Counted from the first letter of the stretch, positions 5,791 through 31,900 are shown. The stretch: 42,308 nt of DNA from Gemmatimonadota bacterium (GCA_036679605.1 JAZDCZ010000068.1:1-42308), one strand, 5' to 3'. Made by a program: numbers and translations. Notes: generated by a model not told the origin, from the sequence alone.

Positions 5791-5856
5791 CAATTCAGTG
5801 TGGCTTGCGAGGTGCCCGAGTTTCTACATAAAACGGTTTAAAAACAAATAGTTAGA

Positions 5857-5884: not shown

Positions 5885-5916
5885 AAATTTGCCGCCTGGA
5901 TGGGCTGGGAGTTCAA

Positions 5917-9185: not shown

Positions 9186-12100
9186 TCTCGATGCAGCATA
9201 TCTCTGGCGCAGGCGTCGGCGACGCGGCGCGCTATCACGACAAGTCATTCAGCCAGAACGCAGGGCAGAAGGCGGATAACTACTACGTCAACGAGAAGGC
9301 GTCGGCCAGGTGGGAGGGGCGTGGCGCCGAGATTCTGGGCATCCAAGGCAAGGAAGTCGAGCGGGAAGCCTTCATCGACCTGCTCAACGGCAAGCTATTC
9401 AATCCGGCCACGGGTGAGGTACAGGATCTGGCGGAGAACAGCAAGGGAGAAGACCGCCGCGCCGGCATGGACTTCACCATCTCACCAGCGAAGAGCGTTT
9501 CCATTGCCGGCCTGGTGGGCAAGGACGAGCGCATCGTCGATGCGCACCTCGCGGCCAATCAACGGGCCATGGAATGGCTGGAGAAGCACGGCGCGATTGT
9601 GCGGGTGAAGGACGAGAACGGCCGCAACCGGTCGGTGGGCAAGCAGAACCTTGTTTATGCCACGGTGATGCACGAGACCAATCGGGAGAACGAGCCGCAG
9701 ATCCACAGCCACAACGTCATTGTGTCAGCCGTCTATGATGAGACCGACCAGAAGTGGCGCAGTCTGACGAACGATCAGATGTTGAAGCTGCGGGCCAAGG
9801 CCGACGTCATCTACAAGGCGGAACTCGCGCAAGGCCTCAAGCGTGCCGGCTACGAGCTGGAGTATGCCGACAACGGCGTCGATTTTGAGATCAAGGGGTT
9901 CAGTCCGGAGCACATCGAGCTGTACGCAACCCGGAAGAACCAGATTAAGGCGGCGCTGCTGGCGCGTGGCATCGAGCCCGGCAGTGCCAGTTTTGATGCG
10001 CGTCAGACGGCGGCGCTGGACAGCCGGTCGCGCAAGCAGGAGCTGCCTCGGGACGCCTTGCAGCAGATTTGGCAGGACGCCGGCCGCGATGCGGGTCTGA
10101 GCGTCGCGTCCATCGTGTCGCGTGCACGTGAGCGCGCTAAGGGCGTCGAGCAGGCTGTTCAGACGCGGGAGCGTGCAGACCGATTGCCGGGGAACGCCGG
10201 CGCCAGGCAAGTTGACGCTGTTGCCCAGAAAGCCGCCGTACGGGCCGTGTCTTGGGCCGTCGAACACTTATCCGAGCGTGAGCAGGCCTTCAGCCTGGTC
10301 GACGTCGAGCTGGCAGCTGTGAAGTTCAGCCGTGGTGGCATCGATGACGTGGACTGGGCCATCCAGCAACACATCAAAAACCATCTTCTGGTCGCACGTG
10401 GCACCGACACCGATGGGGCCATGATGTACACCACCCACCGCGCGATTGAAACCGAGATGCGGCTGAGTGAGCATATCCGTGCCGGCATGGGGGAGAACCG
10501 CGTGGTTCTCACAGGGCAGGCGGAATTCGATGCAGCGGTGCAGACGTTCGAAGCCAGGAAGGGGGCGGAACTTGGGGCGCCCTTCAAGCTGTCAGGCGAA
10601 CAATTGGAAGCCGCACGCAACTTGCTGATGCATCCGGATAGCTTTCAGGGCGTCCAGGGCGATGCCGGTACCGGTAAGACTGCCGCCCTGGAGATGGTGA
10701 ACGATGTGGCGAAGGCGCGCGGCTGGCGCGTGAGCGGGGTGGCGACTTCTGCGGCCGCAGCGAAGCAGTTGGAAGGTGACAGCGGCATCGAAAGCGATAC
10801 CGTGGCTGGTTATCTTTCGAAACGCGACAACCGCATCAAGGCGACCGAGCTGCGCCTTGCCGAGCTCCGCTCTGCCATGACGAGCCACGCCGCGCTTCGC
10901 AAGACCGCAAGTGCCCGCTTGGAAACCCACCGCTTGGCGGTCGCAGCAGAGGACGTGCGGTTTGGTACCCACCGCTACACGTTCGATCACCAGCGTGGCG
11001 AAGTCTTCCGATCCCGCGACAGTTTTGTGACCACCATCGGTGTCGTGTTGACCGATGTGGCAAACCGTCACCACGACGCCGCGGCTGCCGCACGCGAAAC
11101 GGCTACGACGCTAGGCGAGCGACTTCGCGCTCGCGCCTATGGCTTGGCGGTGAGCGCTTCGGACTCTCTGGGGCGGCGTATGGCGTCGTACGAGCAGGTC
11201 GGTACCGTGGAAGCGGTGGCGGCACGGACCACGCTCTACCTCACGCAAAGCGAGAAGACGGATTTGCAGCGCGAGATCGCTGTTAAGGAAGCTGAGTTGG
11301 CCAATCTGCGGCGCTGGGGCAATGCAGAGGGGCAGCGCACGCTCCTGGTGATGGACGAGTCGTCGCTGACGGGCGCGGCGGATACCGAGAAGATTGCGTC
11401 ACTGGCGCGTCAGATCGGCGCACGGGTGGTGTTGCAGGGCGACGTCAGGCAGCACGGTTCCGTGGCTTCCGGCCGAGCATTCGAGCAAGCGCAAGATGCT
11501 GGGATGCACGTGTCCTATCTGCAGGAGACACGGCGCTTCGTCGATGCCACCCCGCAGACCAAGCAGGCCTTGCTCGACATGAAGGCTGGCGAGTATGCGA
11601 AGGCGATCGGCCGGCTCGACACATTGGAAGTGGACAATTTAGATCTGGCCAGCACGGTGGCGACGCGCTACCTGACAAACCTGGAAGAACTGCGTGCGCG
11701 AGGGGTCGACAACCCCCGGGTCGGTGTTGTGGCAATCACTAATGCCGATCGCAAGAAGATCAACGCCGCGATTCACCGGCAACTGGCCGAGCATGGTGAG
11801 ATCTCCTCGGCGTCGTTCATCAAACCACACCTCGACGACCCCAAGATGACCAAGGCCGAGCAGACACAGGCAGTGATGTTGCGGCAGCACGGAGTCGACA
11901 CCCTGGTCTTCCGTAAGAGCTACCGGGAGATTGGCGTGGCCAAGGGTGACGTGCTTCAAGTCGTCGGCTATGACGTACCGGCCAACCGCATCCTCGCGAC
12001 CAACGCCCGGGGTAAGCGCATCGAGATCAACCCGCAGCGCCAGGATCTGTTCTCGCCAGCCAAGCGGGAGGAGCGTGCCTACGCCGTGGGGGACCGCGTC

Positions 12101-12628
12101 GAGGCCCGCGCCATCCTACATTTGCAGGGGCCGGACAAGGAGCCGGTGCGCATCGCTAACGGCACGGCCGGTGTAATTACGGCGATCGATGAGCATGGCG
12201 CCAAGGTGCAGTGGTCGCGGGTCAAGCACGCTTCTGATCTGAAGAATGACGATCTGCGCTACGTGGACCACGCCTATGCCCACACGTCTTACAAGGAGCA
12301 GGGGGCGACAAACCACCGCGAGATCGTTGCAGTGAGTGTCGTTGGCGCCAAGGTGTTCAATCGGCTGGCGGCCTACGTGGCAGCGTCGCGGGCCAAAGAC
12401 AACACCGAGGTGGTCACGGCTGATCGGGAGACCATGCTGCAGAATGCCGGCGCCGAAGTGAAGAAGACGACGGCCGTCGACATGAAAGAGGAACGCAAGC
12501 GCGCACAAACCAAGGACGTCGCGCAGCGCCAAGAGGCGGTTCAGACCCTGCAGCCCGCGCGAGCCGGCGCAGAGAAGGGGCGCGAAGCGGCAAAGGTCCG
12601 TGATCATGGCCAACTGCTTGAATGGTAG
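9182..12628 (+). CDS. trwC: MOBF relaxase-helicase (TrwC family)
   Basis: ARY...DNYY tyrosines, DFTISPAKSVS, HETNRENEPQIHSH (HUH); helicase GDAGTGKT, MDES, GDVRQH, HAYAHTSYKEQGAT, YVAASRAK. Confidence 0.97.
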   Translation: MISMQHISGAGVGDAARYHDKSFSQNAGQKADNYYVNEKASARWEGRGAEILGIQGKEVEREAFIDLLNGKLFNPATGEVQDLAENSKGEDRRAGMDFTISPAKSVSIAGLVGKDERIVDAHLAANQRAMEWLEKHGAIVRVKDENGRNRSVGKQNLVYATVMHETNRENEPQIHSHNVIVSAVYDETDQKWRSLTNDQMLKLRAKADVIYKAELAQGLKRAGYELEYADNGVDFEIKGFSPEHIELYATRKNQIKAALLARGIEPGSASFDARQTAALDSRSRKQELPRDALQQIWQDAGRDAGLSVASIVSRARERAKGVEQAVQTRERADRLPGNAGARQVDAVAQKAAVRAVSWAVEHLSEREQAFSLVDVELAAVKFSRGGIDDVDWAIQQHIKNHLLVARGTDTDGAMMYTTHRAIETEMRLSEHIRAGMGENRVVLTGQAEFDAAVQTFEARKGAELGAPFKLSGEQLEAARNLLMHPDSFQGVQGDAGTGKTAALEMVNDVAKARGWRVSGVATSAAAAKQLEGDSGIESDTVAGYLSKRDNRIKATELRLAELRSAMTSHAALRKTASARLETHRLAVAAEDVRFGTHRYTFDHQRGEVFRSRDSFVTTIGVVLTDVANRHHDAAAAARETATTLGERLRARAYGLAVSASDSLGRRMASYEQVGTVEAVAARTTLYLTQSEKTDLQREIAVKEAELANLRRWGNAEGQRTLLVMDESSLTGAADTEKIASLARQIGARVVLQGDVRQHGSVASGRAFEQAQDAGMHVSYLQETRRFVDATPQTKQALLDMKAGEYAKAIGRLDTLEVDNLDLASTVATRYLTNLEELRARGVDNPRVGVVAITNADRKKINAAIHRQLAEHGEISSASFIKPHLDDPKMTKAEQTQAVMLRQHGVDTLVFRKSYREIGVAKGDVLQVVGYDVPANRILATNARGKRIEINPQRQDLFSPAKREERAYAVGDRVEARAILHLQGPDKEPVRIANGTAGVITAIDEHGAKVQWSRVKHASDLKNDDLRYVDHAYAHTSYKEQGATNHREIVAVSVVGAKVFNRLAAYVAASRAKDNTEVVTADRETMLQNAGAEVKKTTAVDMKEERKRAQTKDVAQRQEAVQTLQPARAGAEKGREAAKVRDHGQLLEW

Positions 12629-14089: not shown

Positions 14090-15481
14090 TCAGTAGGAGG
14101 GGAGCACTGCATTCGTGCCCGATTGCGCACTACCGCTGTGGGCGTTTTGCTGAATCGGTTGGTAGTTGCCGCCAATGTTGGTGGGCACATGCGAGATGGC
14201 CTGTTGTGTCATCTCGTCGGTGAACTCACTGAAGTCGACCTTGGTAAAGTCGATCGCGCTGATCTGATCTACCGTGAGTCCCGCGCATCCTTCCAGCGGC
14301 AGGCCTAGCTGAGTCTTGCCCTGAATGTTGACAATCTTGGCCAAAATCGAGTTGAACGAGCAGAATTCGTCTACATACTGGACGCAGCTGCCGAACGCCT
14401 TCTTGGAACACGACTCTTTGATGAACACACTTAGGTTGGCGCCTCTGTGCATCGCGAGCATCTGTTCTGCCTCTGAGCATTTGGACAGCGCTTGGTAGAC
14501 CTGCATCGCCACCATGATGGCGAACACATAGGGATTGAAGGCTAGGTAGCCGTTCGAACCAAATGATGCCAGCTGCATGTTGCCGCCTAAAAGGCCTGCC
14601 GACATCGTGCCTGTGCCGACAGTGAAACCATAGGCACCGACTGACAGTCCTCCCGCAGAAAGGGCGGTCCCCAACGAACCGTCGGCGAGCGAGAAGTTGC
14701 TGGCCAGCGCCTCACTAAAAATCCCATTCGAATACATCGCGTCAAACACATATGGCGATGCCATGTCGACGAGCTTCTCGCCCGCATACTTGGCCACCGA
14801 GGCTCCGGCGCCGACTACCGTAGTCAAGACCTGAGAATTAGTCTGCGCGCCGGGCATGCTCTTGCAGCAGTTCTGCACGCCCCCATAGCCCTTGCGGCAA
14901 CTCTCCGGCACGCCCCAGAAGATGCCGTTCTGACTGTCGCGGTAGCGCGCCGCCTCGCCGAGAATCTCCAACCCAACTGCGCCGTTGGTGAAGGTGCCTT
15001 TGCCGGGGGGGGGCGTAGGAAACCCACCGTTGTCGAACAAGCCGTCGGTGCAGGTGGTTTGCTGACCGGTTTCCTGCGCCTTGGTCAAGCACTTGTAGGT
15101 GTACTGCCATTCATTGCATTGCCCGGTTTCCGCTGTGGTGTCCATGCACTGGCTCTTGGTTACACCACAGGCTGGATTGTTGCGGTACTGCGCGCACGTG
15201 TCGGTTGTCCCACCGTCACAGGCGTAGTGGTACGTGTATTGCCAGCAACTGTATGGGACCTGTAGGGCTCCCGATGGTGGGGTCGCTGTCGACAAACAAA
15301 TTTGTTGGCCACTGCCGCTGGTCTTGCAGGGCGTCGCGTCAGCACAGCTCTGTGAGCCGGGTATCAGCTTGCAAGCACCTGGAGCAGGCGTGGTCTGAGC
15401 GAGTGCCGCGGTGGAACAGATGAGCCAGAGCGCGTGCACAAACGTGGCAAGCAGTCGCCATTGACGAAATGCGTGGAGCAC
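14090..15481 (-). CDS. traN: mating-pair stabilization protein TraN, C-terminal part (own signal peptide)
   Basis: NCCK, KCSEAEQML, CSKK, FCSFNSILAKIVNIQGKTQLG, CAGLTVDQISAIDFTKVDFSEF; GTG 15481 with GAGGG SD. Confidence 0.9.
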   Translation of the reverse strand: MLHAFRQWRLLATFVHALWLICSTAALAQTTPAPGACKLIPGSQSCADATPCKTSGSGQQICLSTATPPSGALQVPYSCWQYTYHYACDGGTTDTCAQYRNNPACGVTKSQCMDTTAETGQCNEWQYTYKCLTKAQETGQQTTCTDGLFDNGGFPTPPPGKGTFTNGAVGLEILGEAARYRDSQNGIFWGVPESCRKGYGGVQNCCKSMPGAQTNSQVLTTVVGAGASVAKYAGEKLVDMASPYVFDAMYSNGIFSEALASNFSLADGSLGTALSAGGLSVGAYGFTVGTGTMSAGLLGGNMQLASFGSNGYLAFNPYVFAIMVAMQVYQALSKCSEAEQMLAMHRGANLSVFIKESCSKKAFGSCVQYVDEFCSFNSILAKIVNIQGKTQLGLPLEGCAGLTVDQISAIDFTKVDFSEFTDEMTQQAISHVPTNIGGNYQPIQQNAHSGSAQSGTNAVLPSY

Positions 15482-15491
15482 GAGTAAGCCC

Positions 15492-16832
15492 TCAGTTGAT
15501 AGGTGCTGGGAGAGCGACTCCAGCACTTTGTTCGTAGGCGGTGCAACCGTCAGACCAGGATGTCGAGACGGTTTGCTTCACACAATTGGTACCGTTCAAC
15601 GTTTGCCCTGCTGGGCAGCTGTACGTCACGGTAGGCGGTGAAGTGACGGTGTGTGAGCACTGCATGCCTTGCACTTGATCGCCGGCGTTGCAGTTTGCTG
15701 TCCCGCCAATCGTGGTGGTCATGGTGCACTGCGTGCCGTCGAAGGTGTATCCATCGGGGCACGACTGCAAAGGCACGTACCACGGCATGTAGCACGAGCC
15801 CGTGCCCCAGCAGCTACCGGGCGCCCAAAGACGCATGCCGTTGTACACAGGTGGGGGCGGATCGGGCATCTCTCCCAGAGGTGTTCCTGGACCATAGCCG
15901 CCGAGAAAAACGCAATAGGGACGGCCAGCGGGGTCAGAGATGCTGAGCCAACCGTCACTAGGGCAATAGGGAGTTCCCTGAATCGATGACGTTTGCACGC
16001 AAGAATAGCCAGCCTGAATGTAACCGCTTGGGCATGTCACCCAAGCCGGATAATCGGTGTGGCTGGTACACCAATTGTTGTTGAGCGTCTGGCCTGCGGG
16101 ACAGGTGGTACTTGAATAGGCTCCGGTCAGCGTATTGACAATGGTCGCACTTAAGGTCTGAGAGCAGGCATTGTCTGAAGTGTCTGTTGAAACGATGCAA
16201 GTGTTGTACTCGTACTGAGCCGGCTTGGTTACTACCGTGCTTGTAGTGCAGGTCTGCCCTTGGTTCTTCGTAGTCTCGGGGAGTTTGAGCGTGCCCTGAA
16301 ACATCGGGTCGTTGATGGTGACCTGGTCGCGATAACCGAATTGCGACTGGCCGGCGCCGAATGTGCCTGCGCAGTTGGGAGAGTTGGCTTGCGAGAAGCC
16401 CGCGTTGCCCAACACTTGTCGCTGACTGTTGCTGGGCTGGAAGCACTGGTTGTTGAGGAAGTTGACGGCTGCGCAGTCCTGGTTGCGGTATTGGTCGCTG
16501 CCCGGCACATAGTTTGCGCAATCAGACATGGCCTTGTTACCCAGGCCAGTCAAACTGCCCGCTTTGGCGGCGCTTAAGATCGAGCCGTCGGTGTTGGGGT
16601 TCGAGAACCCTGCCAAACCTCCTGGCACGTTGGTAGGCATGGCCGTTTGGCCCGACCAGGTGCCGCCATTGACGCCGGCTGGGTTCACGATCTGACTCGG
16701 TGAGGTGGGCGCCAGGGTGCGGGCAAAGGCCGTGCCGTTGGCCACTTGGGCTGGGCTCTGGGCAAAGGCCGCACCCGCGCACAGCAGCAACGGCAACAAG
16801 AAAATGCGGGAGTTGAGCATGTCGGCCCTCAT
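15492..16832 (-). CDS. traN: TraN N-terminal part; Cys-rich exported adhesin-like protein
   Basis: Signal peptide AFA-Q, repeated CP.G.TL.G..C units, WSDGCTAYEQ end typical of the TraN N-terminal half; start may be 16820. Confidence 0.7.
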   Translation of the reverse strand: MRADMLNSRIFLLPLLLCAGAAFAQSPAQVANGTAFARTLAPTSPSQIVNPAGVNGGTWSGQTAMPTNVPGGLAGFSNPNTDGSILSAAKAGSLTGLGNKAMSDCANYVPGSDQYRNQDCAAVNFLNNQCFQPSNSQRQVLGNAGFSQANSPNCAGTFGAGQSQFGYRDQVTINDPMFQGTLKLPETTKNQGQTCTTSTVVTKPAQYEYNTCIVSTDTSDNACSQTLSATIVNTLTGAYSSTTCPAGQTLNNNWCTSHTDYPAWVTCPSGYIQAGYSCVQTSSIQGTPYCPSDGWLSISDPAGRPYCVFLGGYGPGTPLGEMPDPPPPVYNGMRLWAPGSCWGTGSCYMPWYVPLQSCPDGYTFDGTQCTMTTTIGGTANCNAGDQVQGMQCSHTVTSPPTVTYSCPAGQTLNGTNCVKQTVSTSWSDGCTAYEQSAGVALPAPIN

Positions 16833-17365
16833 CAGCGTCGCGCTGGGCGATTCGACGGTTGCTGCATCAGTTTGGCGGCGTCCTCCGGCTTCATGCTGCC
16901 GGCGGCCACCGCAGCGTCGATCGCTTGCTTGACTTCCGGCGTATCGATCGGGGTGGTTCCGTCAGAGCACCGTGCGTTGGCCAGCACCAATTTGCCTGGC
17001 GCGTTGCGGCATACCCGTTGTGGCGGATCGCCGTTCTCGCAGATGTTGAGCTGCCCGCCGAGCTCCGGCCAAACCTGGTGTGCGCTGGGCTGGCCGACCA
17101 CGAACAGGACGCGGCCACAGCGCGGCTGGTCTTTGAACATCTGCAGGCGCTGGGTGTAAAGCACGACGGGACCTGCGTCGTTGGTGCTGGCTCGGATCGC
17201 AGTAACGGCGCGGCCGAACATGCCGTCCGCATCCAGCGGCATCTGCGCCGAACCGTGGACTAGCGCTTCAATCATGAGATCGCGGGCCGAATCATCAAGC
17301 GCGTAGCTGGCCGTCGGCAGAGCGAGGAGGAGGGAGCTGACCAGGAGGGGAAGCCGAATGTGCAT
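16832..17365 (-). CDS. exported hypothetical protein (177 aa, 4 Cys)
   Basis: Signal peptide; TGATG coupling to traN-N. Confidence 0.75.
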   Translation of the reverse strand: MHIRLPLLVSSLLLALPTASYALDDSARDLMIEALVHGSAQMPLDADGMFGRAVTAIRASTNDAGPVVLYTQRLQMFKDQPRCGRVLFVVGQPSAHQVWPELGGQLNICENGDPPQRVCRNAPGKLVLANARCSDGTTPIDTPEVKQAIDAAVAAGSMKPEDAAKLMQQPSNRPARR

Positions 17366-17374: not shown

Positions 17375-18541
17375 TTATCGTTTTGCAGGTGCCACGAGCG
17401 CAGTAAACAGATCGACGTCCTGTTGGCGGAATGGCAGGTACGGCACGCTCCAGCCATAGTGAAAGCGATTGGATGCGCGCAGCCGTTCGAGCTCCCGGAT
17501 CTCGGTGGGCACGAAGCCGACGATGCCCGGCACCACCGTGCTGGCGCGGATTTCAGCTTCTTTCGGATCCTTCGGCGTGATCGACGACGCGCGATAGCAG
17601 CGCTGAGCATCGTCCTTAAGCGCGGCGGCATTGAGTGCACGGCGCTGCCGGTTGAGTAGTGCGTACTTGCAGGCAAGGTATTGCGGCTCCGGCGCTGCTT
17701 CGCGCGTCACCTGTTCGAGCAGCGCGTAGCCATCGTCGACGCCGGTGCCGATCGAATGGCGCAGCAAGGTGACCTTCTGTGTCAGCGTGACCCGGTTGTC
17801 ATAGAGCGCTTTCGGCAGTCCCGCGAGATCCGACCAGCAGCCCTGCGCATACTGTGCAGCCTGCGCGCGATCGCCTCGCCGGTAGGCGATGAAGGCACCG
17901 AAGCCGCACACCCGATAAGACGCCTCGGGCGCGATCTGGGCCGCTTGCGCGACCAAGGCCCCGGCGGTGTTCAGGTCGGCGGCTTGGCCTTTTCCATAGG
18001 CAGCGGCGAGCGCAAGGTTGTACAGCGCCGGCTGATAGTTCATCGCTGCGGCGGCCCGGTACCAGTCCAGAGCGCGTGCCACATTGCGGGGCGCGCCGAA
18101 GAGGCCGTATTCGGCAATGAAGCCTTGGAACGTCATGGCTTCAGGGCTCCTGCGGGCAGCCAGATCCGTCAGCTTGCCGAGCAAGGCCTGGCGCTCGGCG
18201 GGCTTGGCGCTGGCCGCCTCGATCATCCACGTGACGTAGGTCTCACCATCGCTGGAGACGACATTGTGCGTGCCGTACTTGAGCTGCGTGCCGACCTCTG
18301 TCGCCTTGGGTAGCGCTGACTTGGCCTGCGCGACAGCGGCGGCGTCGATGCTGTTGACCACACCGACATTTTGCTGCCGGTAGCTCTTCACGAAGCCCTT
18401 GAAGACATCGGAATTGAACGTGGACTCGGCGAAGTTGCGGACACTGTCCGGGGTGACTGCTTCACCTTGTGCAAAAGCACTGTGCATTCCCCCCATTAGC
18501 AGGGTCGCAATGAATTGAGGAATCCAACGTTGTATCCGCAT
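17375..18541 (-). CDS. exported Sel1-repeat (TPR-like) protein
   Basis: Signal peptide AFA-Q; Sel1 motifs YGLFGAPRNVARALDWYRAAAAMNYQPALYNLALAAAYGKG. Confidence 0.85.
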   Translation of the reverse strand: MRIQRWIPQFIATLLMGGMHSAFAQGEAVTPDSVRNFAESTFNSDVFKGFVKSYRQQNVGVVNSIDAAAVAQAKSALPKATEVGTQLKYGTHNVVSSDGETYVTWMIEAASAKPAERQALLGKLTDLAARRSPEAMTFQGFIAEYGLFGAPRNVARALDWYRAAAAMNYQPALYNLALAAAYGKGQAADLNTAGALVAQAAQIAPEASYRVCGFGAFIAYRRGDRAQAAQYAQGCWSDLAGLPKALYDNRVTLTQKVTLLRHSIGTGVDDGYALLEQVTREAAPEPQYLACKYALLNRQRRALNAAALKDDAQRCYRASSITPKDPKEAEIRASTVVPGIVGFVPTEIRELERLRASNRFHYGWSVPYLPFRQQDVDLFTALVAPAKR

Positions 18542-18563
18542 TGATTTGATCGGCAATGAATAA

Positions 18564-18612
18564 TTGAGGGCGACACCGGGTTTAATTATAATCAGTTCAG
18601 AAACCGATACAA
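18564..18612. promoter_or_regulatory. overlapping divergent promoters: (+) TTGAGG-N17-TATAAT and (-) TTGTAT-N16-TATAAT
   Basis: + strand -35 18564-18569 and -10 18587-18592; - strand -35 18612-18607 and -10 18590-18585, sharing ATTATAAT. Confidence 0.55.
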
Positions 18613-18675
18613 ATTAATATCGTGATCGGTGCCGCAATCACAACAGCGATGTTGTTTAACCCGATAGGGGGGGGA

Positions 18676-20205
18676 ATGAGCGAATCAAACGTGCCGGAAG
18701 TGGGGGGGCTAGCCGCGCTGTCCACTGAGGAGCGCCGGGCCATCATGCTCATCAACGATGGAAACACCGATGAAGCCCGGATCGAGCAGGTGATACGCGA
18801 TCTCTTCGTGTGGGGGGTCGTGACGAAATCCTCCGACCTGCACCTTAGCGGGAGGGGCGACCGCGAGAGCCCAGTGATTGTGGCCAACGTGCGCACACCC
18901 AGCGGATTTCGGAATTTCCTGTTTCGCTATCCGACCTCCAAAGGCAGGCATTGGCAAACCAAGTTATTTAGCCTCACAGGTACACCGCAAGGCGCGTCGA
19001 CACCGGATATCTCCTCGACTCGTTTTGAAATGGTGTTGCCGGCTAAGTTCGCGCTGGCACATGGACTTAAGCCGTTTGAAGGTGAAGACACGTACCCGGT
19101 CGATGTGCGGGTCGAGTACACCAAGACCTTTAACGGGTTCTCCTTTGTGTGCCGTTTGCTGGACTCACAGCGGGCCCCCAAGCTGCATGAATTGGGCTTG
19201 TCCTACACCATGCACAGGGTCATCCTGCGCGCGCTCGCGGAGCCGAGTGGTCTAATCCTGGTGACTGGGCCGACGGGTTCCGGCAAGACCACCTTGCTCA
19301 ACGCGATGCTGGGCGTGCTCAACGATGGCACGCGTGCCATCCATACGATCGAGCACCCGGTCGAAATTGCGTTGCGCGGTTGGGGGCCGATCAAGCAGGT
19401 GCAGATCGGCGGCAACATCACCTTCCCGCGCGCATTGCGCTCCGCGTTGAGGCAGGATCCCGACGTCATCATGATCGGTGAGATTCGCGACGCAGAAACC
19501 ATGGAAATCGCCCTGCAGGCCGCACAGACCGGCCATTTGGTACTTGCCACATTGCACACCAACAACAGCGCGGAAACCTATACCCGGGCCATCGACCTGA
19601 CCATGGACAAGGAGCGCGATGCGTATCGGCTGGCGCAGTCGGTAAAGCTGGTGACGGCGCAGCGCCTACTCGACCGCTACGAAGGCGAGGCGAGCACGCG
19701 GGCCTTGTCCCGGGATGAGCGGGAGTGGCTTTCGGCCAACGGCATGCATCTCGGCGCACAAATCACGGAGACGGTGCCAGTGGTGGAGGCGGGGCGGCCC
19801 AAGCGCGCCGGCAAGGTGGCGCTGCTGGAGACCATCGTCACCACGCACGAGATCAAACAGCTGCTGCGTAGTGCGCGGGTCAACACCTCCGACATTTACA
19901 AGGCGGCCTGCAATCAGGACCAGTTCGAGCCGCTGGCCATGGGCGGGGTGCGGGCGATGCAGGGCTTGGGTGCGCGTTTGCAGGACTGTGTCGAGCAGCT
20001 CGAAAGCATGACCGACGCCGAGCAGACGCCGTGCTTGCGTCTGCAACTGGCGGAGCGCTATCGACTGAACTATGTGGAAGTGGCCGAAGCGATTGATGCC
20101 TATCATCGGGCAGCGGACGCCGGCAGCCACCAGACGCTGGAAGCGTTCTTTGCGCAGCGGTGCGGCGCGCCTCATGGCGCCAACCTGGAAGAGGAGGTGG
20201 TCTGA
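18676..20205 (+). CDS. GspE/PulE/PilB-family secretion ATPase
   Basis: SSDLHL, VTGPTGSGKTT, TIEHPVE (Asp box), LRQDPDVIMIGEIRD, AAQTGHLVLATLH (His box). Confidence 0.93.
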   Translation: MSESNVPEVGGLAALSTEERRAIMLINDGNTDEARIEQVIRDLFVWGVVTKSSDLHLSGRGDRESPVIVANVRTPSGFRNFLFRYPTSKGRHWQTKLFSLTGTPQGASTPDISSTRFEMVLPAKFALAHGLKPFEGEDTYPVDVRVEYTKTFNGFSFVCRLLDSQRAPKLHELGLSYTMHRVILRALAEPSGLILVTGPTGSGKTTLLNAMLGVLNDGTRAIHTIEHPVEIALRGWGPIKQVQIGGNITFPRALRSALRQDPDVIMIGEIRDAETMEIALQAAQTGHLVLATLHTNNSAETYTRAIDLTMDKERDAYRLAQSVKLVTAQRLLDRYEGEASTRALSRDEREWLSANGMHLGAQITETVPVVEAGRPKRAGKVALLETIVTTHEIKQLLRSARVNTSDIYKAACNQDQFEPLAMGGVRAMQGLGARLQDCVEQLESMTDAEQTPCLRLQLAERYRLNYVEVAEAIDAYHRAADAGSHQTLEAFFAQRCGAPHGANLEEEVV

Positions 20206-20206
20206 G

Positions 20207-20833
20207 ATGAAACGCCGTGCAATGGTCACGTGGTTGGGGGCGCTGTGCGTCTCTCGGTCGGTTTGGGCGCAGGCACCGGCCGGCATGGAGCAGTTCAAGC
20301 CCTACCTTCAGGTCAAGCCAGTGGCGGGCGACGAGGAGACTGTGCGGGTCTTCTTCTCCCCTGGCTGCCCATTCTCCCGGTCCTATTTCCAGTTCTTCAA
20401 GAATCTGGAAGCGACCCTGCCCAAGGACAAGAAGTTCGCCTTCACGCCGCTGGTGAACAAGGCGGACGGCATCCAATTCGCGCTGAGCTTTCTGGCCGTT
20501 CAAAAATATCACCCGGCCTACGTCCACAACTTTATGGAGGCAGCCTTTATCGGCGTCCAGGACAAGGGGCTGGCCACGCGGAACTGGGCAGGCATTGAGC
20601 GCATTGGCCAAGCCGCCCATGTGCCCGTGTCGGTGCCGGCACTGGTGCAAGCTCACAGCGAGACGCTGCGCACGGCGCTGCAGGCCTTGTTGGTTACGCA
20701 GAAAGGGTTGCAGGTGACTAATACGCCGGCGGTAACGGTGGCCGGCACCTTCATCGTGACCCCGGAATTCACCAACGGGGACACCGCTTTGTTCAGCCAA
20801 CTGGTCAACGGTGTCATCTCGATGGCGCGCTAA
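20207..20833 (+). CDS. DsbA-like thioredoxin-fold exported protein with CxxS (CPFS)
   Basis: FFSPGCPFSRSY active-site region, VTNTPAVTVAG cis-Pro loop, signal peptide MKRRAMV...VWA. Confidence 0.8.
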   Translation: MKRRAMVTWLGALCVSRSVWAQAPAGMEQFKPYLQVKPVAGDEETVRVFFSPGCPFSRSYFQFFKNLEATLPKDKKFAFTPLVNKADGIQFALSFLAVQKYHPAYVHNFMEAAFIGVQDKGLATRNWAGIERIGQAAHVPVSVPALVQAHSETLRTALQALLVTQKGLQVTNTPAVTVAGTFIVTPEFTNGDTALFSQLVNGVISMAR

Positions 20834-20946
20834 CCGCCGCCGTCCCGCACGGGGGAATACCTGCCTCCCCCCCAATTTCCGGGCGCCGACGCTCGCCGTT
20901 GTAAAATTCGGGCTGCCCAAGAAAGTCACTTCCGCACCATGTCTCC

Positions 20947-21468
20947 ATGTTGACTGAGAACCAAAAAGTACTCATTGCCAAGGGCCTCAACAGAGGGCTC
21001 ATGGATACGCTCATTGCGCATCGGCTGGGTGTCTCGCATATGGCGGTGTACCTTTACCGCAAGCAGCTCGGTATCCGCTCCGAGCAGGTGCGGGAAACCC
21101 GCTACGACACATGGATCCGGCTGCTGGAGGAGGGGCGATCCGTGGAGGCCGTGGCGAGCCTCTACGAAGTCAAGCCCGATACCATCCTGACGACGCTGTA
21201 CCGGACGCGCGAATTCTCCTATCCGGAAGTCAAAGAGCGTGCGCGCTTGGCCAAGGAAGAAGATATGCGCCGGGCGCTTGGCGTGACCGTGCGCGATCTG
21301 CAAGCGCAGCGAATGCAGGCTTGGGTGAAACTCGGGCAGGCCGGGATGACAGTGGAACAGATCGCTGAGACCTACGACGTCGATCCCAAGGAGGTGACGG
21401 CCGTGCTGCGCAAGCACAAGGTCAGCGTGGTCAAGCCGAAAGTCGAAGAGGCGTCGTTTGACTGGTAG
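20947..21468 (+). CDS. putative DNA-binding protein with three HTH motifs
   Basis: IAHRLGVSHMAVY, SVEAVASLYEVKPDTI, TVEQIAETYDVDPKEV. Confidence 0.75.
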   Translation: MLTENQKVLIAKGLNRGLMDTLIAHRLGVSHMAVYLYRKQLGIRSEQVRETRYDTWIRLLEEGRSVEAVASLYEVKPDTILTTLYRTREFSYPEVKERARLAKEEDMRRALGVTVRDLQAQRMQAWVKLGQAGMTVEQIAETYDVDPKEVTAVLRKHKVSVVKPKVEEASFDW

Positions 21469-21502: not shown

Positions 21503-21528
21503 AAAAGCCCGCATTGAGCGGGCTTTTT
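21503..21528 (+). terminator. intrinsic terminator (potentially bidirectional)
   Basis: AAAAGCCCGC-ATTGA-GCGGGCTTTTT after the HTH gene. Confidence 0.85.
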
Positions 21529-22191: not shown

Positions 22192-25100
22192 CTAGTCGCC
22201 GCCATCACCAGGCACGGCTCCAGCCCGGCCGGGCCACGGCGAGGGGGTTGGGGTCGGCACAGGTGGTGCGGGGGTAGCGGCCGGCGCGCGTGCGGGGGCC
22301 GGTGCGGGGGCGGACGCAGCTCCATCGACCAAAGTGGTGCGGCTGGGGCTGCCGGCCTTGCGGCCCAGATCGACGACGTTGTCGGCCACGTTGGCGGCCA
22401 TGCGCCGCACCGTACCGGCACCCTTGTCGTCCAGGCCGGCATTGGAGGCCTGCTCCTGGGCACTGCCGACCTTGCCGTCTACCGTGCGCTGGCCATGGCT
22501 GACATTGCCTTCCACCATGCGCTTGAATTCCGGATCGAGGTCCGGCGCGCCTTGCGCACGCAGGTGGGCGGCGTCGGCTGGCGGCGTAGCCTGCGACGGG
22601 CGGCCGATGTCGCGCTGGGGCGTGTGGCCACCAGCCGCGTGGTGGGTGGTGGGTCCTGCAGGACGATGAGCGGGCATTGCGGTGGCGGCAGCGGTCGCCA
22701 ATGTCGCAGCTGGCAAGGCCGGCGTCGCTCGCTGGACGGCTTTCTGCAGACCCGAGGTATTCACCCCGGTGTGGTCCGACGGGCTGCCCAGCTCGAAGCT
22801 CTTCATGGAGGTATCACCCGGCGTGAAGCGCATGTGCTGCATCGCCTGGCCTTCTTGCGTGAGGTAGTTCAAGGCCATGGCGCGGTCGGCCGCTGGTGCG
22901 CTCTGGTCCTGAGCCATCAGCACAGCGGCCCGATGGCGGTTGACCAGTTGCTGACCTTCGGGGCTGTTGACCACCCGGTCGGTTGCGCCGTGCGAGGCGT
23001 CGGCCTGTGCCAGCTGCAAATACGGCTTGGCCGCCGCACTCTCGTCGAACTTGCGCCCCTCCAGTGCAGAGAAAGCCGCGAACTCGGGGTTCGCGCGGCT
23101 TTGCCAGAGCAGCTCGGGCGCTTTGATCTGGGCCGAGGCCTGCACGAAGTTGGAGCTCTCATGCAGAGCGCTCGCCGTCGCATCCGACACCGACTTCACC
23201 TCGCTCAATGTTTGCTGGTACGACTCTTGGGTCTGCAGCGTCTGCGTGAGGTCCTTGGCGGCCTGTTGACCGGCACTGGTGTGTCGCGTGGCGGACAGGG
23301 TGTCGTGAATTGAATCGGACAGTGCCTTCGAGTCGTCGTAGGAGGCGTTGGTGCCGGCGTCCCGCGTCGCCTGCAGGCGATCAGAGGCAGTGGTCGAGGT
23401 CTCCATGTTGCCACCTGCTGACAGCGAGAATCCAAAACCTTCCCCAGAAGAGATGCCTGCACTTGCCCCCGCATGCATGCCACCACTGGTGGTGTTTTCG
23501 TTGGCACGAGCACCCGTGACGCCGGTTCCCGAGTGCTGATTCCGGCTGGCGTTACGCCGGGCTTCCCAGCCCTTGACGATCTGTTCGCCGATCGAGTTGT
23601 CAATGCCGAAGCCGCTGAAGTCGTGTTTCTGGGCAGCGGCTGCCCATTGGCGCATGTTGCTCTGTCCTGCCTCGATGCTGGCACTCTGCGTCTGGGCCTT
23701 GGTCAGAACCCGGCTCGCGTCGCGGGACAGGTTGCCGAAGGTGGCACTACTGGAGACCGCTTCCAGCGCGCCATTCATCGCCAGATTGGCTTGGCCATTG
23801 GGTAGTTGAGTCGCGCGTCCCACCGAGCTGTTCTCAAACATCGGCCGTGTGACCGACGGTGCCGGCGCCACGTTGTCGGCCGTTTCGTGGCTCTTGGGGG
23901 CAATGGTCGTGGCCACGCTGGTCATCGCAGACGACTCGCCCAGGCCGAAGATCAGGCTCATCAGCACCGGCAGGCTGGCCATGATGTGCGAGCCCACACC
24001 GATCTGCAGGCTGAGCTGCTTGTAGGCCGCCAGGGTCGACGCTTGGGAGATCCAACCGCCTTGGCGCAGCGACTGCAGGAAATTGGCCACGTCGATCGAA
24101 AGCATGGCGTTAACCAGTTCCGCGCCGACGTTCACCACCAGCAGTGGCCACACCATGATGTGCGCGGCTGTCTTGACGCTCTTCCCCGCTTCGACGCCCA
24201 GGAACATCATGAACATCAGGATCACGGGGCCAAGCCCGATGATGAGCGCGATCAGGTAATTCCCGAAGTTGCCCGCGTAGCGCAGCATCGGAACCTCTGC
24301 CGCAGCCTGCTGCATGTTGTTTCGCTCGATCTCGGCCGCCTGGAGCGCTGTGGCCTGGCAGTTTGTCAGCATGTCGCCACTGGCCTTCAGGCAGTTCAAG
24401 TCGCTCTGCACGAGCTCGGCGAACAGCAGATTCATAAACTCGGCGTTGGCTTGCGCCGCGCCGCCGGTGAACACCCCGCCCAGCGTATTGGCGGTGGCGA
24501 CCGCGTTGTACTTGGCCGCCACGCTATTGAAGCTGTAGTCGGCGCCAGGTACGGGTTGATCCATGCCGTTGACCGCGCCTTGAATGACGCGTGTGAACTC
24601 GACCGAGTTGAGGGCGTTGGTGATGTCGTCCGCCACCTTGTTGGCCGCGTCGTTGCACGACAGGATATTGGTACCGCTCAGGCCCGGATCGTTGACCATG
24701 CCGTTGGTATTGGACGCCGCCTGAAACAGCAAGGCGCCCAGTGCCGTTGGATTCACGCCGTTGATGGCGATTGACCTGGCCGCGGTGGCTCCGGTGTTGC
24801 CGGCGTTCATCACCAACTGGTGCACATTGGCATAGTTGACCCCCGAATCCGGGCCCAGGCATGCAGCCAGCACGGTTTTGATCTCTGAGTCGACACCGCC
24901 CAGGCGCACCATGGCCGAGCGCGACGACAGCAGGACCTTCAGCGGGTTGAGGAAGCCATTGGTGGTGGCCGAGATCGTCGGATACTCCATGTTGACCGAC
25001 TGGAACGCGGTCGAAATCACCGCATTGAGATCCTGAGACAACATGCTTGCGGAGGCCGGAATCACCGAGATGGCCAGCGGGACGTTGTCCACCTGGGTCA

Positions 25101-25407
25101 GCGCGCCATTAATGGTCGATTCAACCTGGACAGTACCTTTGAGGCCGGGATTGGTCAGCACCATGGCCAGAATGAACGGCATGAGGGCGCCCATTGGGCC
25201 GGCGGCCAGCACGGCCGCGCCCTGCCCTGTCGGGCTGCGCAACGCGCCCATGGTGGCCGTGGCGAGCAGGCGCCAGATCGCCACCATCACCGCGAAGCCC
25301 CAGATCATCGCATCCTGCTTACAGATCATCGCGACGCCGTTGAGGATGGCGCTCAGCGTCGTGAGATCGGCGCTCACCGAATAGTAGGTTAGGGTTGGAA
25401 TCGCCAT
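22192..25407 (-). CDS. traG: F-type conjugal transfer protein TraG
   Basis: ILNGVAMI, VDNVPLA motifs, multi-TM N-terminal half, long polar C-terminal half; follows traH. Confidence 0.9.
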   Translation of the reverse strand: MAIPTLTYYSVSADLTTLSAILNGVAMICKQDAMIWGFAVMVAIWRLLATATMGALRSPTGQGAAVLAAGPMGALMPFILAMVLTNPGLKGTVQVESTINGALTQVDNVPLAISVIPASASMLSQDLNAVISTAFQSVNMEYPTISATTNGFLNPLKVLLSSRSAMVRLGGVDSEIKTVLAACLGPDSGVNYANVHQLVMNAGNTGATAARSIAINGVNPTALGALLFQAASNTNGMVNDPGLSGTNILSCNDAANKVADDITNALNSVEFTRVIQGAVNGMDQPVPGADYSFNSVAAKYNAVATANTLGGVFTGGAAQANAEFMNLLFAELVQSDLNCLKASGDMLTNCQATALQAAEIERNNMQQAAAEVPMLRYAGNFGNYLIALIIGLGPVILMFMMFLGVEAGKSVKTAAHIMVWPLLVVNVGAELVNAMLSIDVANFLQSLRQGGWISQASTLAAYKQLSLQIGVGSHIMASLPVLMSLIFGLGESSAMTSVATTIAPKSHETADNVAPAPSVTRPMFENSSVGRATQLPNGQANLAMNGALEAVSSSATFGNLSRDASRVLTKAQTQSASIEAGQSNMRQWAAAAQKHDFSGFGIDNSIGEQIVKGWEARRNASRNQHSGTGVTGARANENTTSGGMHAGASAGISSGEGFGFSLSAGGNMETSTTASDRLQATRDAGTNASYDDSKALSDSIHDTLSATRHTSAGQQAAKDLTQTLQTQESYQQTLSEVKSVSDATASALHESSNFVQASAQIKAPELLWQSRANPEFAAFSALEGRKFDESAAAKPYLQLAQADASHGATDRVVNSPEGQQLVNRHRAAVLMAQDQSAPAADRAMALNYLTQEGQAMQHMRFTPGDTSMKSFELGSPSDHTGVNTSGLQKAVQRATPALPAATLATAAATAMPAHRPAGPTTHHAAGGHTPQRDIGRPSQATPPADAAHLRAQGAPDLDPEFKRMVEGNVSHGQRTVDGKVGSAQEQASNAGLDDKGAGTVRRMAANVADNVVDLGRKAGSPSRTTLVDGAASAPAPAPARAPAATPAPPVPTPTPSPWPGRAGAVPGDGGD

Positions 25408-25419
25408 GAGTTTCCTCGC

Positions 25420-26901
25420 TTACTTGATGCTGGAGGCGGTGAACTTCGTGCCCTCGTTGATTTCGGTGACGATCTTGAGCATGACGTCGCTGTTGTCGCA
25501 CGCCGTGCGCTTGTCCAGGAAGTCGGCGCGCAGCTGCTTGATGTGCGACTTCTGATCTTCGTTCAGGTCATAGCCTGTGGAGGTCTGGATCAGGTTTGCG
25601 CCCTTGTAGAGCGCCTCGCCGACGCGCGACGCGACGCAATCGACAATATGCGGCACCAACCGCTGCGCGATGGCCACACGGGTGTTGGGGTTCGATGTCT
25701 TGGTGAGCAACGCTGACAGCGGCACCCCGGCTTGTTGCATGAACTGGATCTGCGATGCCGAGAAGGCCGTCGACGCACCACTGTTGACCTGTCCAATGAT
25801 CGAGGTGCTGGTGATCGCCAGCGCGGGATCGGCAGAGCCGAACAGCATCGAGTTCACCCAGCCCCGGATGCCGGGGTAGTTGAAATTCACCTGCTGCATT
25901 TGCGTACAGATCTGGTTATCCACTCCGCCCGAGACGCTGCCGTTGGGGTTCATGCACTGGTACAGCTGCAGCGGCATGTCGGGCCGAACCGAGCCCGTTC
26001 CGCCCCCTTCAATCAGGTCGTGCAGCGTCACCAGGGCCGGACCGGAGCAGGTCACCAGGCCGATGGAGTTGTTCGCGGGCGAAGTTGATTGCACGCCTTG
26101 GCCATTGGCATTCAGGCTGTTGCAGGGAATCGCGTCGATGTTGTAGCCGAGCAGCGCATAGAGCAGCTTGTTGTTCAAGCTGTTCGGATTGGTCGGATCA
26201 TCGCTGCTGCCATCCAGATTGCCGAGCCCTGCGAGGCCCATGATGCTCGAACCGCCGGAGGCCACCGCCATTTTTGTCAGAGCGTTGCCGCTCTTCGGAT
26301 TGTTGGCCGACTGTTGCTGCAGATACGAGTTGGCTTGCGAGAGGTAGTTTGTCAGACCACCGAAGACATCGGAGAACATGTTGGACTGCGTGCCGCCCAC
26401 GTTGCCATCGCCGTTCACCGCATTGGACAGCGCCGAAGCCGCCGGGTCGACCACCAGGTGGGCGAGCTGGCAGGAATTCTTGGCCAGGTTGTTCATGTTC
26501 TGCAGCAGCGTCTGGAACTCGGTGATGAGCGCGTCCAGCGAGGGCGAGATGGCCTTGATAGCGGCCTTGAACGCCAGACCCGCCGCATTGGCGGCCACCT
26601 GCCGGAAGATTTGGATCAGCTGCTGGCTGTTGATGAAACTGAACGAACCGCCGAACAGGTCAATGCCGCCACAGCCCGCATCAATGCGGGGCGGGTCGAA
26701 GGTGATCAAGTTGACCGACTTGATCGGAGTGCGCATAGCAAAGCCGCCCATGAACACCCCCACCCGATCCTTGGTGCTCATGGTGCCGGGCGCCGTGGTG
26801 TTGCTCATCACCATCGAGTTGAGGTCGGTCAGAATGCCCGCCGACGCAGCGATCGACATCGTCGCCAGTGCGGCGGCTACCAGCAAGGTCTTCACACGCA
26901 T
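25420..26901 (-). CDS. traH: conjugal transfer protein TraH
   Basis: PPRIDAGCGGIDLFGGSFSFIN signature; NSCQLA. Confidence 0.95.
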   Translation of the reverse strand: MRVKTLLVAAALATMSIAASAGILTDLNSMVMSNTTAPGTMSTKDRVGVFMGGFAMRTPIKSVNLITFDPPRIDAGCGGIDLFGGSFSFINSQQLIQIFRQVAANAAGLAFKAAIKAISPSLDALITEFQTLLQNMNNLAKNSCQLAHLVVDPAASALSNAVNGDGNVGGTQSNMFSDVFGGLTNYLSQANSYLQQQSANNPKSGNALTKMAVASGGSSIMGLAGLGNLDGSSDDPTNPNSLNNKLLYALLGYNIDAIPCNSLNANGQGVQSTSPANNSIGLVTCSGPALVTLHDLIEGGGTGSVRPDMPLQLYQCMNPNGSVSGGVDNQICTQMQQVNFNYPGIRGWVNSMLFGSADPALAITSTSIIGQVNSGASTAFSASQIQFMQQAGVPLSALLTKTSNPNTRVAIAQRLVPHIVDCVASRVGEALYKGANLIQTSTGYDLNEDQKSHIKQLRADFLDKRTACDNSDVMLKIVTEINEGTKFTASSIK

Positions 26902-26910
26902 GTGGCGCTC

Positions 26911-27897
26911 CTAGTATTGCTTCAGTAGATAGGGTTGAAGGGCTTCCCGGAAGGAGCCGGGGCGGTTCGGGTCGAGCTTGAGCTGCTGCAGATCCGTGGT
27001 GCTGGCCACGCCTCGATCCCATACATCTAGGTCGCGCATAACGGCAGCGCTGAGCAGTTTGGTGTTGTGGCCGGCGTAGGCGATCTGCTTGACCAGTTCG
27101 TCTTGCGCGTAGAAGCCCTGGGCCACCACCAGATACCGGTTCGGATCGGCGTCGCCCGCATAGCCCTGAGGTTTCGGTACGTAGACAATGGAAGGCGTGA
27201 GCTTGAGGCCGAGCTTGTTGAAGAGACCGTTGTCCTTGATCACGGCGCCCTTAAAGTCCCGCGGCTTGCTCCCATCGAGGGAGATCACGACGTATTCAAG
27301 GTTGTAACCATTTTTGAGCATTCCCAGCACAGGCAGCTGCATGGCGCAGAAGCGGCAGGTGCTGTCGACAAAGATGACCAGCCCACCCACGCGCGCCAGT
27401 TCCCGCACCGCCTTCTGCTGGGCCTGGTAGTTGGCATTGCGGACCGACAGTGCACCTGTGGAGGCGTACGGCACTCGATTGTTCTCGTCGAGCAGCGGAT
27501 CCTCGCGTACCACCTTGGTCACCATCTCGCTGAAGCGCTGCGCCTTGTCCATGACCACGCGCTTGGCATACATGTAATCCGATACGTTTTCCCGTGTCGG
27601 GTTGTCGATCGCGCGTTCTTCCAGCTTCGGGTACATCTTGCGCAGAAATTCGACACTGGCGGTTTGCGGGCCTTCAGTTTTGGCGTTGGCGCGTGCTGCA
27701 GCCGGGGCCGCAGAAGGCGCCGAGGCTGGGCCGGCGGGTTCCTTGGGTTCCCCCGGTACCACGTAGGGTAGGTAGTTGACGAAGGCGTCCCCGTAGTCGT
27801 CACCGCGTGGCCGTACCGGCTCGGCCAATGCTTGCGAGGTGAACACTGCGGCTACAAGGGCGGTCAGCAGCGGGCGTCGAGACAATGTGTGGCGCAT
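26911..27897 (-). CDS. traF: F-type TraF (thioredoxin fold, CRFC)
   Basis: AIDNPTRENV, DKAQRF, CRFC, ISLDG, TPS motifs; upstream of traH. Confidence 0.9.
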   Translation of the reverse strand: MRHTLSRRPLLTALVAAVFTSQALAEPVRPRGDDYGDAFVNYLPYVVPGEPKEPAGPASAPSAAPAAARANAKTEGPQTASVEFLRKMYPKLEERAIDNPTRENVSDYMYAKRVVMDKAQRFSEMVTKVVREDPLLDENNRVPYASTGALSVRNANYQAQQKAVRELARVGGLVIFVDSTCRFCAMQLPVLGMLKNGYNLEYVVISLDGSKPRDFKGAVIKDNGLFNKLGLKLTPSIVYVPKPQGYAGDADPNRYLVVAQGFYAQDELVKQIAYAGHNTKLLSAAVMRDLDVWDRGVASTTDLQQLKLDPNRPGSFREALQPYLLKQY

Positions 27898-27907
27898 ACC
27901 GTGGCTC

Positions 27908-31886: not shown

Positions 31887-31900
31887 AGGATCCTCTTTTG

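Follow-up and report, generated by a model that had tools for sequence, protein, structure and literature searches.

A PilB/GspE-type ATPase conserved in one group of F-type conjugative transfer regions, with a possible role as a third motor

A 42,308-nucleotide stretch of DNA (GCA_036679605.1, JAZDCZ010000068.1:1-42308; hereafter the window) binned with a Gemmatimonadota genome contains a complete F-type (MOBF) conjugative transfer region by Pfam and NCBIfam. Between traG and traN it carries a gene for an ATPase of the PilB/GspE fold (18676-20205, plus strand). A preliminary description of this DNA had pointed to that gene as an intact ATPase lodged within a type IV secretion system (T4SS) of the F type, and its gene order and motifs are confirmed here. 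We find that the ATPase is no one-off orphan but belongs to the fixed backbone shared by a group of F-type transfer regions. The family is real, conserved and largely unstudied, and is best read as a T4SS traffic ATPase by separate recruitment. By analogy with known systems we consider it somewhat probable that the ATPase acts as a VirB11-like third motor docking on TraC. Support for such a motor comes from catalytic motifs that are intact, the missing N1 domain (by which PilB and GspE are joined to their usual platform), fixed linkage to tra and DsbA-like genes, the absence of pilus partners from most carriers, separate ancestry and co-descent with TraC.

Linkage of the ATPase to tra genes

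Eighteen plasmid regions around ATPase matches were picked by hand. In 13 of them the ATPase has a DsbA-like neighbour and lies on a plasmid carrying F-type tra genes (pBMUL01, pOLGA2, Massilia, Herbaspirillum, Aromatoleum EbN1, pSTY, RPME01, Acinetobacter TGL-Y2, P. fungorum, C. malaysiensis, Allochromatium, Simplicispira and Delftia). The other five (Sulfitobacter, Methylomonas, Nitratiruptor, Aliarcobacter and L. adelaidensis) were set aside as ordinary type II secretion (T2SS) or MSHA clusters. A score-picked test used two overlapping searches of 401 Burkholderiales-group genomes each, with three candidates scored per genome, and gave eight matches at E 1e-80, four of them close kin and one (L208) possibly duplicating a plasmid already counted. 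Seven of the eight have tra and DsbA-like genes within 10 kb and are silent for gspF and secretin probes, the eighth being a 1.8-kb contig. A search for related loci with the ATPase as single query gave nothing; with the alignment it relied on generic Walker patterns and yielded ordinary PilB/GspE loci from 1/64 of each collection, which served as outgroup and control only. With one locus omitted from the control, a tra probe matched at 0 of 159, and a platform or secretin probe at 129 of 159.

Linkage to tra genes in relatives, on which the earlier idea depended, is conserved over Beta- and Gammaproteobacteria. The ATPase stands at the head of a run slt-(orf)-ATPase-dsbA-...-traLEKB on five elements, namely those of EbN1, Acinetobacter, P. 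fungorum and C. malaysiensis and one genome locus (L213). Among plasmids matched by the window's TraH, 36 of 38 are also in the ATPase match lists. Both exceptions are Stenotrophomonas, and the one checked has no PF00437 gene; there traG keeps its 5' part, which continues in frame into sel1's 3' part. Judged by this junction, the ATPase module of the plasmid was evidently lost in a deletion that also cut traG.

Two side observations belong here. The traG::sel1 fusion (L199:16383-18881) lies on a Stenotrophomonas rhizophila IncpSTY-type plasmid that MOB-suite rates as conjugative despite the cut traG. On two MOBH elements (L183:3845-6717, L184:3004-6533) an ATPase-dsbA pair, its zinc motif kept, stands near mobH and a gene for an FlhC-family activator, off the main tra cluster.

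Motifs, fold and family of the ATPase

The longest open reading frame (ORF) of the ATPase begins at GTG 18622; ATG 18676 is preceded by a G-rich ribosome-binding site and agrees with a 509-residue homolog (P0002). The protein has Walker A GPTGSGKTT, Asp box EHPVE, Walker B MIGEIRD and His box TGHLVLATLH, with AQRLLDRYEG lacking CxxC. A protein search returned 404 proteins from 8000 candidates scored, the best 109 of which (41-100% identity, the window's included) stand above a score gap; 83 of these homologs and the window protein form an alignment of 84 sequences. Its invariant positions include K204, E226, P228, E230, E269, H287, H294, R330 and the N2D arginines R145 and R160, and catalytic residues are invariant or nearly so throughout, down to 40% identity.

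An AlphaFold2 model built from this alignment (pLDDT 94.4) has the PilB core without N1D and three extra C-terminal helices, in agreement with the helical extension described earlier. Foldseek ranks PilF and PilB first (E 5e-31), followed by GspE, PilT and DotB. With PilB/GspE the protein shares the T2SSE domain, the N2D and RecA-like CTD, and the intact Walker A/B, Asp and His boxes, and it falls below the cut-off of all 25 NCBIfam models shown. It scores 222 of 676 for TIGR02538 and 214 of 630 for TIGR02533 (PilB/GspE), and 179 of 319 bits for TIGR01420 (PilT/PilU), with EIKQLLRS at the site of the PilT AIRNLIRE-type helix. The VirB11/TrbB models TIGR02788 and TIGR02782 give 63 of 250 and 60 of 305 bits; the DotB/TraJ models give 82 of 463 and 110 of 368 bits, in an F-type context. 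No N1 domain was found ahead of N2D, the sequence before the first helix of N2D being only some 30 residues long. N1D binds PilM/GspL. By its sequence the window ATPase is cytoplasmic.

Loss of the zinc motif and an EHPVE box had been noted earlier. Both are present, but neither is diagnostic, and we rejected them as marks of a new family. In the clade of 84 the Asp box reads ENPVE in 42, EDPVE in 30 and EHPVE in 7, a minority form. The tetracysteine zinc motif is absent from its usual site in all 84 and kept in six distant tra-linked ATPases, and among 161 ordinary ORFs of the PilB, GspE and PilT kinds 17 are likewise without two CxxC. A set of proteins of about 1000 residues (P0132-P0148) has at least two ATPase stretches each and high scores against the family profile; these are probably tandem-ATPase fusions.

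Pilus and T2SS partners

That pilus partners are missing from the 42 kb, as previously noted, was borne out: gspF/pilR, secretin and pilN probes found no match in the window, and none of its 406 reading frames has a prepilin motif. Whole-plasmid scans, which detected both positive controls, found no PilC/GspF (PF00482) in 11 of 13 carrier plasmids. Secretin was absent from 7 of 9 carriers scanned, the two positives being the same two that have PilC/GspF, and the pilin motif was absent from 8 of 9. On both carriers with PilC/GspF a second PF00437 ATPase stands beside the platform gene, in a separate pilus cluster, and no carrier plasmid has a pil/gsp cluster without an ATPase of its own.

The window contig (C400 of bin G000) is the most deviant in tetranucleotide use among 51 contigs of at least 30 kb, and its genes are Burkholderiales-plasmid-like; it is probably a plasmid piece binned with an unrelated genome. 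The bin has its own pilB-pilT-pilC cluster on a different contig. If the window contig is foreign to the bin, as it seems to be, those pil genes are uninformative about partners of the ATPase.

Plasmid scans of F, R27, pSEA2 and Ptw found no PF00437 gene. The DsbA match on Vibrio pSEA2 was consequently dismissed as a carrier, and the Ptw plasmid, whose shared genes reach only 28-38% identity, as a source or model. To our knowledge, models of F-type systems usually contain no ATPase profile.

Ancestry and co-descent with TraC

Trees were built with FastTree and supplemented by smaller trees. An outgroup-free set held 23 tra-type rows (13 with genomic context seen and 10 database proteins) and 17 rows of canonical PilB, GspE and MshE. 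The tra-type ATPases are split from these sampled canonical proteins with support of 100/100 and a branch of 0.58, and closest to the canonical group are those tra-linked ATPases in which the zinc motif is retained. A single origin of the tra-linked ATPases is not rejected (p-AU 0.50).

Distances between ATPases follow those between the TraC proteins of the same systems (rho 0.93, n=25, Mantel p 1e-4, with 16 of the 25 pairs matched by equal length of the carrying sequence), including within the window's clade (rho 0.90, 19 pairs). Twelve of 15 supported ATPase splits are shared with the TraC tree. That tree places 15 ATPase-type systems on one side and F, R27 and Ptw on the other, with weak support (76/72) and a partial Simplicispira row. 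In the ATPase tree, pSTY from Pseudomonas joins the betaproteobacterial RPME01, and Allochromatium joins Delftia and Simplicispira. These data show that the ATPase has long been co-inherited with the T4SS over hosts and relaxase types.

The transfer region of the window

Features of the window are as follows.

6670-12628, plus strand: TrwB-like coupling protein, a 159-residue ORF and TrwC-like MOBF relaxase (Pfam TrwB_AAD_bind 1.9e-69, TrwC 1.1e-66)
14090-16832, minus strand: TraN as two ORFs, likely an N-terminal half (15492-16832) and a C-terminal half (14090-15526)
16832-17365, minus strand: secreted Cys-rich protein of 177 residues between Sel1 and traN (41-52% identity in pBMUL01, Massilia and Herbaspirillum; no Pfam match)
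17375-18541, minus strand: protein of Sel1/TPR repeats, probably with a signal peptide (under the cut-off for Pfam Sel1, at 9e-4; Atlas Sel1 clusters 0.94)
18564-18592, plus strand: sigma70-like candidate promoter for ATPase-dsbA (scan; hexamers kept in pBMUL01)
18676-20205, plus strand: PilB/GspE-fold traffic ATPase of 509 residues (T2SSE Pfam 1.6e-65; N2D and RecA-like CTD, three-helix C-terminal tail)
20207-20833, plus strand: DsbA-like periplasmic thioredoxin-fold protein with CxxS (family profile against DsbA structures, best E 3.8e-17)
20947-21468, plus strand: triple helix-turn-helix (HTH) protein, likely a plasmid regulator (three weak HTH stretches, residues 10-40, 50-80 and 121-147)
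21503-21527, no strand assigned: GC hairpin between A and T runs, a likely bidirectional terminator 3' of the HTH gene (seen in the sequence; absent from the scan list)
22192-28838, minus strand: traG, traH, traF, S26 peptidase (trhF) and a small ORF (Pfam TraG_N, TraH, TraF, Peptidase_S26)
28835-31408, minus strand: traC (VirB4 ATPase), the proposed docking partner (Pfam TraC_F_IV, P-loop_TraG)
31482-40257, minus strand: likely traA pilin (31482-31886), traV, traB, traK, traE, likely traL, trbC, traU, traW, SLT and dsbC (Pfam, NCBIfam)

The region is F-type (MPF_F) by its TraE, K, B, V and C, the F-specific W, U, TrbC, N, F, H and G, a coupling protein and a relaxase, the TraW match being below its cut-off and traA and traL being assigned by position and synteny only. 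Plasmids syntenic with the window are typed MPF_F. Synteny is gene-for-gene with pBMUL01 of Burkholderia multivorans (49-79% identity across shared tra-region proteins) and, over the tra region, with pOLGA2 of Paraburkholderia. The C-terminal TraN ORF exceeds the cut-off of NCBIfam NF009018; the N-terminal one has no family match and is assigned by position, and both recur in relatives. The Cys-rich N-terminal half differs in length among relatives, from about 430 to 720 residues.

At the edge of the tra region (40931-42184) lies an ORF with weak zeta-toxin-like P-loop and KfrB domains, and in pBCJ2315 a zeta-family gene also adjoins traG. A KorA/TrfB-like HTH regulator occupies 3749-4330. The lower-GC stretch at 4330-5900, upstream of the small ORFs that precede the coupling protein, is by analogy with Ptw a likely oriT region. 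In pBMUL01 (L001:3487-11959) a VgrG-DUF1795-RHS-immunity cassette sits between the relaxase and the traN operon, beside IS408. The stretch around the ATPase (17375-21468) was found without differences in contigs of four of four sequencing runs compared, one of which contains all of it and may be its source. Eighteen listed runs, from eight studies with unrelated labels, carry this stretch fully or partly, as would be the case for a widespread or reagent-borne plasmid.

Neighbours and promoters

The DsbA-like gene is the constant neighbour of the tra-linked ATPase. Its product has the DsbA fold with cis-Pro (profile E 3.8e-17; TP invariant). The active site is CxxS in 4 of 4 members of the window's clade and CxxC in 8 of 9 distant relatives, and the DsbA-like protein matched 57 plasmid records. 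Co-transcription of the ATPase with this CxxS gene had been proposed. The gene does start one base past the ATPase stop, at 20207, and that spacing suggests a common transcript; the cover of one RNA library over the stretch is patchy and uninformative about transcription.

The Sel1 gene is the first of a divergent operon leading toward traN, a position kept in relatives' loci; ATG 18541 is its probable start, the longest ORF reaching 18556. Of the overlapping divergent promoters described for this interval, the plus-strand one was found as TTGAGG-17-TATAAT, in a scan that gave two sites against 1.4 expected by chance. Both hexamers are conserved in pBMUL01; the spacer is not. The minus-strand one, a palindromic ATTATAAT with a 3-of-6 -35, was not called by the scan and is only partly supported; the palindromic -10 could also serve the Sel1-traN operon.

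The triple-HTH gene, named earlier as the next gene of the run, is present with its three weak HTH stretches, but we rejected it as part of the conserved module. Its protein matches 14 plasmid records only, restricted to the window's sub-lineage, and in both Massilia plasmids the gene has remained close to traG/traH, with the ATPase some 75-90 kb away.

In several lineages an unannotated protein of 90-140 residues is encoded directly 5' of the ATPase (L174:14425-14703, L175:14328-14708, L004:19585-19974, L209:8907-9182), with one N-terminal membrane segment and, in most, two Cys. The two that were scanned gave no Pfam match, and no homolog was detected in the window, pBMUL01, Massilia or Herbaspirillum loci. 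A weak homolog lies within the Allochromatium tra cluster (L190:7268-7711, E 6e-4).

C-terminal tails

The ATPases of pSTY, RPME01, EbN1, Acinetobacter and four genome loci (L209-L214) have a tandem RLG motif in their C-terminal tails (L174:15910-16122, L175:15895-16107, L004:21180-21392, L177:15856-16068 and the four genome loci). A profile of eight tails matches PilF (3e-14), Geobacter PilB (1e-7) and the V. cholerae MshEN structure 5HTL (2.6e-7), and the tandem motif together with MshEN_N homology identifies the tails as MshEN-like. An hhalign match of 98% between tails and MshEN is partly circular, both sets having been chosen by motif, and Pfam called no MshEN on these tails. The domain is defined by a tandem RLGxxLLxxGxxxxxxLxxxLxxQ, as given for MshEN in PMC5013675. 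In the relatives, motif 1 has its final Gln in all eight tails; in motif 2 that Gln is missing from all six matched, and the linker has some 10 residues in place of 5. Given these deviations, c-di-GMP binding is a prediction, and the tails are predicted c-di-GMP receptors. The domain is N-terminal in PilB and MshE and C-terminal here, and its presence at the C-terminus of tra-linked ATPases is a new observation.

The RLG-type motif occurs in 0 of 84 tails of the window's clade (profile probability 2.5%). The window tail is placed as the relatives' tails are, and its three-helix model (best Z 4.3) singles out no family, MshEN being a four-helix fold. Profile, Atlas, Foldseek and VIA-align gave no support to MshEN for this tail; it is possibly a decayed homolog.

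Discussion

We propose that the ATPase is a dedicated third motor of the conjugation machine. It is predicted to form a cytoplasmic hexamer stacked under TraC, as VirB11 and DotB are under VirB4. There it would power pilin extraction and pilus extension, or a switch to DNA transfer; between a motor of extension and one of retraction the sequence cannot tell. The DsbA-like and Sel1 proteins would aid periplasmic folding of the Cys-rich TraN, TraU and TraH, and in relatives the MshEN-like domain may couple the motor to c-di-GMP; the window's clade would have lost its motif. For a protein that is by sequence cytoplasmic, with no N1D and no platform on its element, the T4SS inner-membrane complex is the simplest target. 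Of the two conditions that the preliminary description named as refuting its idea (a complete pil/gsp cluster on the element using this ATPase, or no tra linkage in relatives), neither was borne out. The co-opted VirB11 analog suggested there is thus the best supported of its readings, as a proposed role.

Several points weigh against this role. F-type machines can work without a PF00437 ATPase, as F, R27, pSEA2 and Ptw attest. The fixed neighbours of the ATPase are periplasmic proteins and not TraC. In the window's clade the ATPase lies on the strand opposite the tra operons, and its distance from traGH reaches about 75-90 kb in Massilia; on the Allochromatium, Simplicispira and Delftia plasmids it is 11-35 kb from tra genes. 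Many of the plasmids counted are near-copies. With PilT, TraJ and PilQ as outgroups, or PilT alone, the root falls next to the long branch of the window ATPase, which makes a grade rather than a clade of the tra-linked proteins; this attachment of PilT may reflect long-branch attraction. Three supported ATPase splits conflict with TraC splits, and co-descent with TraC shows a shared backbone, not contact. Hexamer formation and docking on TraC are themselves suggested by analogy.

The strongest competitor, which we nonetheless judge unlikely, is that the ATPase serves the T4SS through another partner (TraG, TraD, TraB or the small membrane protein), as part of an envelope module of Sel1, SLT, small membrane protein, DsbA and OmpA with the task of exporting or assembling TraN or some other component of the surface. 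The steadiest neighbours, namely dsbA, sel1, slt, ompA and the membrane-anchored ORF of roughly 90-140 residues, fit such a module, as does the divergent promoter region common to the ATPase and Sel1-orf-traN. The module is not constant, however: the small ORF was not detected in the window, pBMUL01, Massilia or Herbaspirillum, the window's slt lies 18 kb off, and the sole constant member, dsbA, has a periplasmic product.

The preliminary description also allowed that the ATPase plugs into a host type IV pilus or T2SS platform (PilC/GspF), aiding mating contact or jamming twitching, competence or pilus-phage entry. Retention of the PilB core fold, plasmids that supply no platform, and an MshEN-like domain in some relatives, as in host PilB and MshE, would suit it. 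The idea is weakened by a tree that follows TraC rather than host (pSTY with RPME01, Allochromatium with Delftia and Simplicispira). Moreover, N1D is absent, the gene lies inside core traLEKB operons in five elements, and all the catalytic residues have been preserved, although a plain jammer could do without them. We regard it as decidedly improbable. Least credible of all, and in our view very improbable, is a relic of a lost pil/gsp cluster carried with the backbone and having little present role: long branches in the window's clade, the disappearance of the zinc site and of the MshEN motif, and the existence of F-type systems without the ATPase speak for it, but catalytic motifs are invariant or nearly so across the 84 sequences, the gene has been retained through several tra-region rearrangements, and the sole loss examined accompanied a truncation of traG.

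A wider form of the third-motor proposal is more tentative, and we would call it possible but somewhat doubtful as a whole. An unnamed F-type subclass (MOBF, MOBH and MOBP; Beta- and Gammaproteobacteria; IncpSTY carbapenemase plasmids and probably Acidithiobacillus integrative and conjugative elements) would have recruited a PilB/GspE-side motor independently of VirB11 and of DotB/TraJ. Docked on TraC, it would drive pilus extension or retraction, with one branch under direct c-di-GMP control through its C-terminal MshEN.

How TraC by itself powers F-type pili is a question that natural F-type systems with and without a third ATPase make testable. If the proposal is true, this is one more case in which a T4SS independently recruited a motor of the pilus/T2SS type. 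From the relatives' MshEN-like tail one would predict that the biofilm signal c-di-GMP is directly linked to plasmid transfer, including that of IncpSTY plasmids with blaVIM. Annotators meeting a lone 'GspE/PilB' on such plasmids would then have a transfer gene before them and not a broken T2SS.

Comparison with known systems

The closest precedent is a table entry. In ICEAfe1 of Acidithiobacillus ferrooxidans, 'pilB' (AFE1087) is tabulated as the VirB11 equivalent of an F-type system (PMC6370655, Table 1), so that the idea has a forerunner although the family is largely unstudied. It encodes a COG2804 ATPase (396 residues) placed between traA and traC of an F-type T4SS, with dsbA/dsbG as accessory genes (PMC6370655), which likens it to the window's gene; this likeness comes from the table entry, which offers neither analysis nor test of the ATPase, and membership in the family is putative. 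In a full-text search of open-access papers and preprints, that entry is the only direct statement found; we found no family-level analysis, test or C-terminal MshEN in conjugation, nor, in the accounts of IncpSTY and Ptw plasmids (PMC8905914, PMC4853378), any discussion of the ATPase.

VirB11 and DotB are described as hexamers under the central VirB4 hexamer, required for pilus biogenesis, and the same reviews state that the F plasmid T4SS functions without VirB11 (PMC12857230, PMC12624023). VirB11, TrwD and TrbB, together with the overlooked and unlinked VirB11 of Helicobacter pylori ComB (ComB11), which is reported to bind the VirB4 C-terminal domain, resemble the proposed role as third ATPases on that domain, and ComB11 illustrates how such a gene can sit away from its operon and escape notice (PMC13395361). 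They differ in subfamily (63 bits against 250), the window ATPase having about 500 residues and PilB-type C-terminal helices.

DotB, reported to be nearer PilT/EpsE than VirB11 (PMC6153414), and TraJ of IncI1 R64 resemble the window ATPase in being PilT/EpsE-like rather than VirB11-like, in serving a T4SS and in being located under a VirB4 homolog (PMC6153414, PMC12857230). Unlike it, they belong to I-type systems (Dot/Icm for DotB), and the window ATPase is nearest PilB/PilF in fold. PilB, GspE and MshE share with it the N2D and CTD fold, Walker A/B, Asp and His boxes, arginine fingers and, in some relatives, an MshEN-like domain, whereas the window has no N1D, platform, pilin or secretin and its ATPase stands on a separate branch (100/100). 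The Ptw plasmid pBCJ2315 is described with an F-type T4SS and a TrwB/TrwC-like design (PMC4853378), as in the window, and lacks the ATPase. The IncpSTY plasmids carry the same ATPase module as the window, and their transfer has been reported (PMC8905914).

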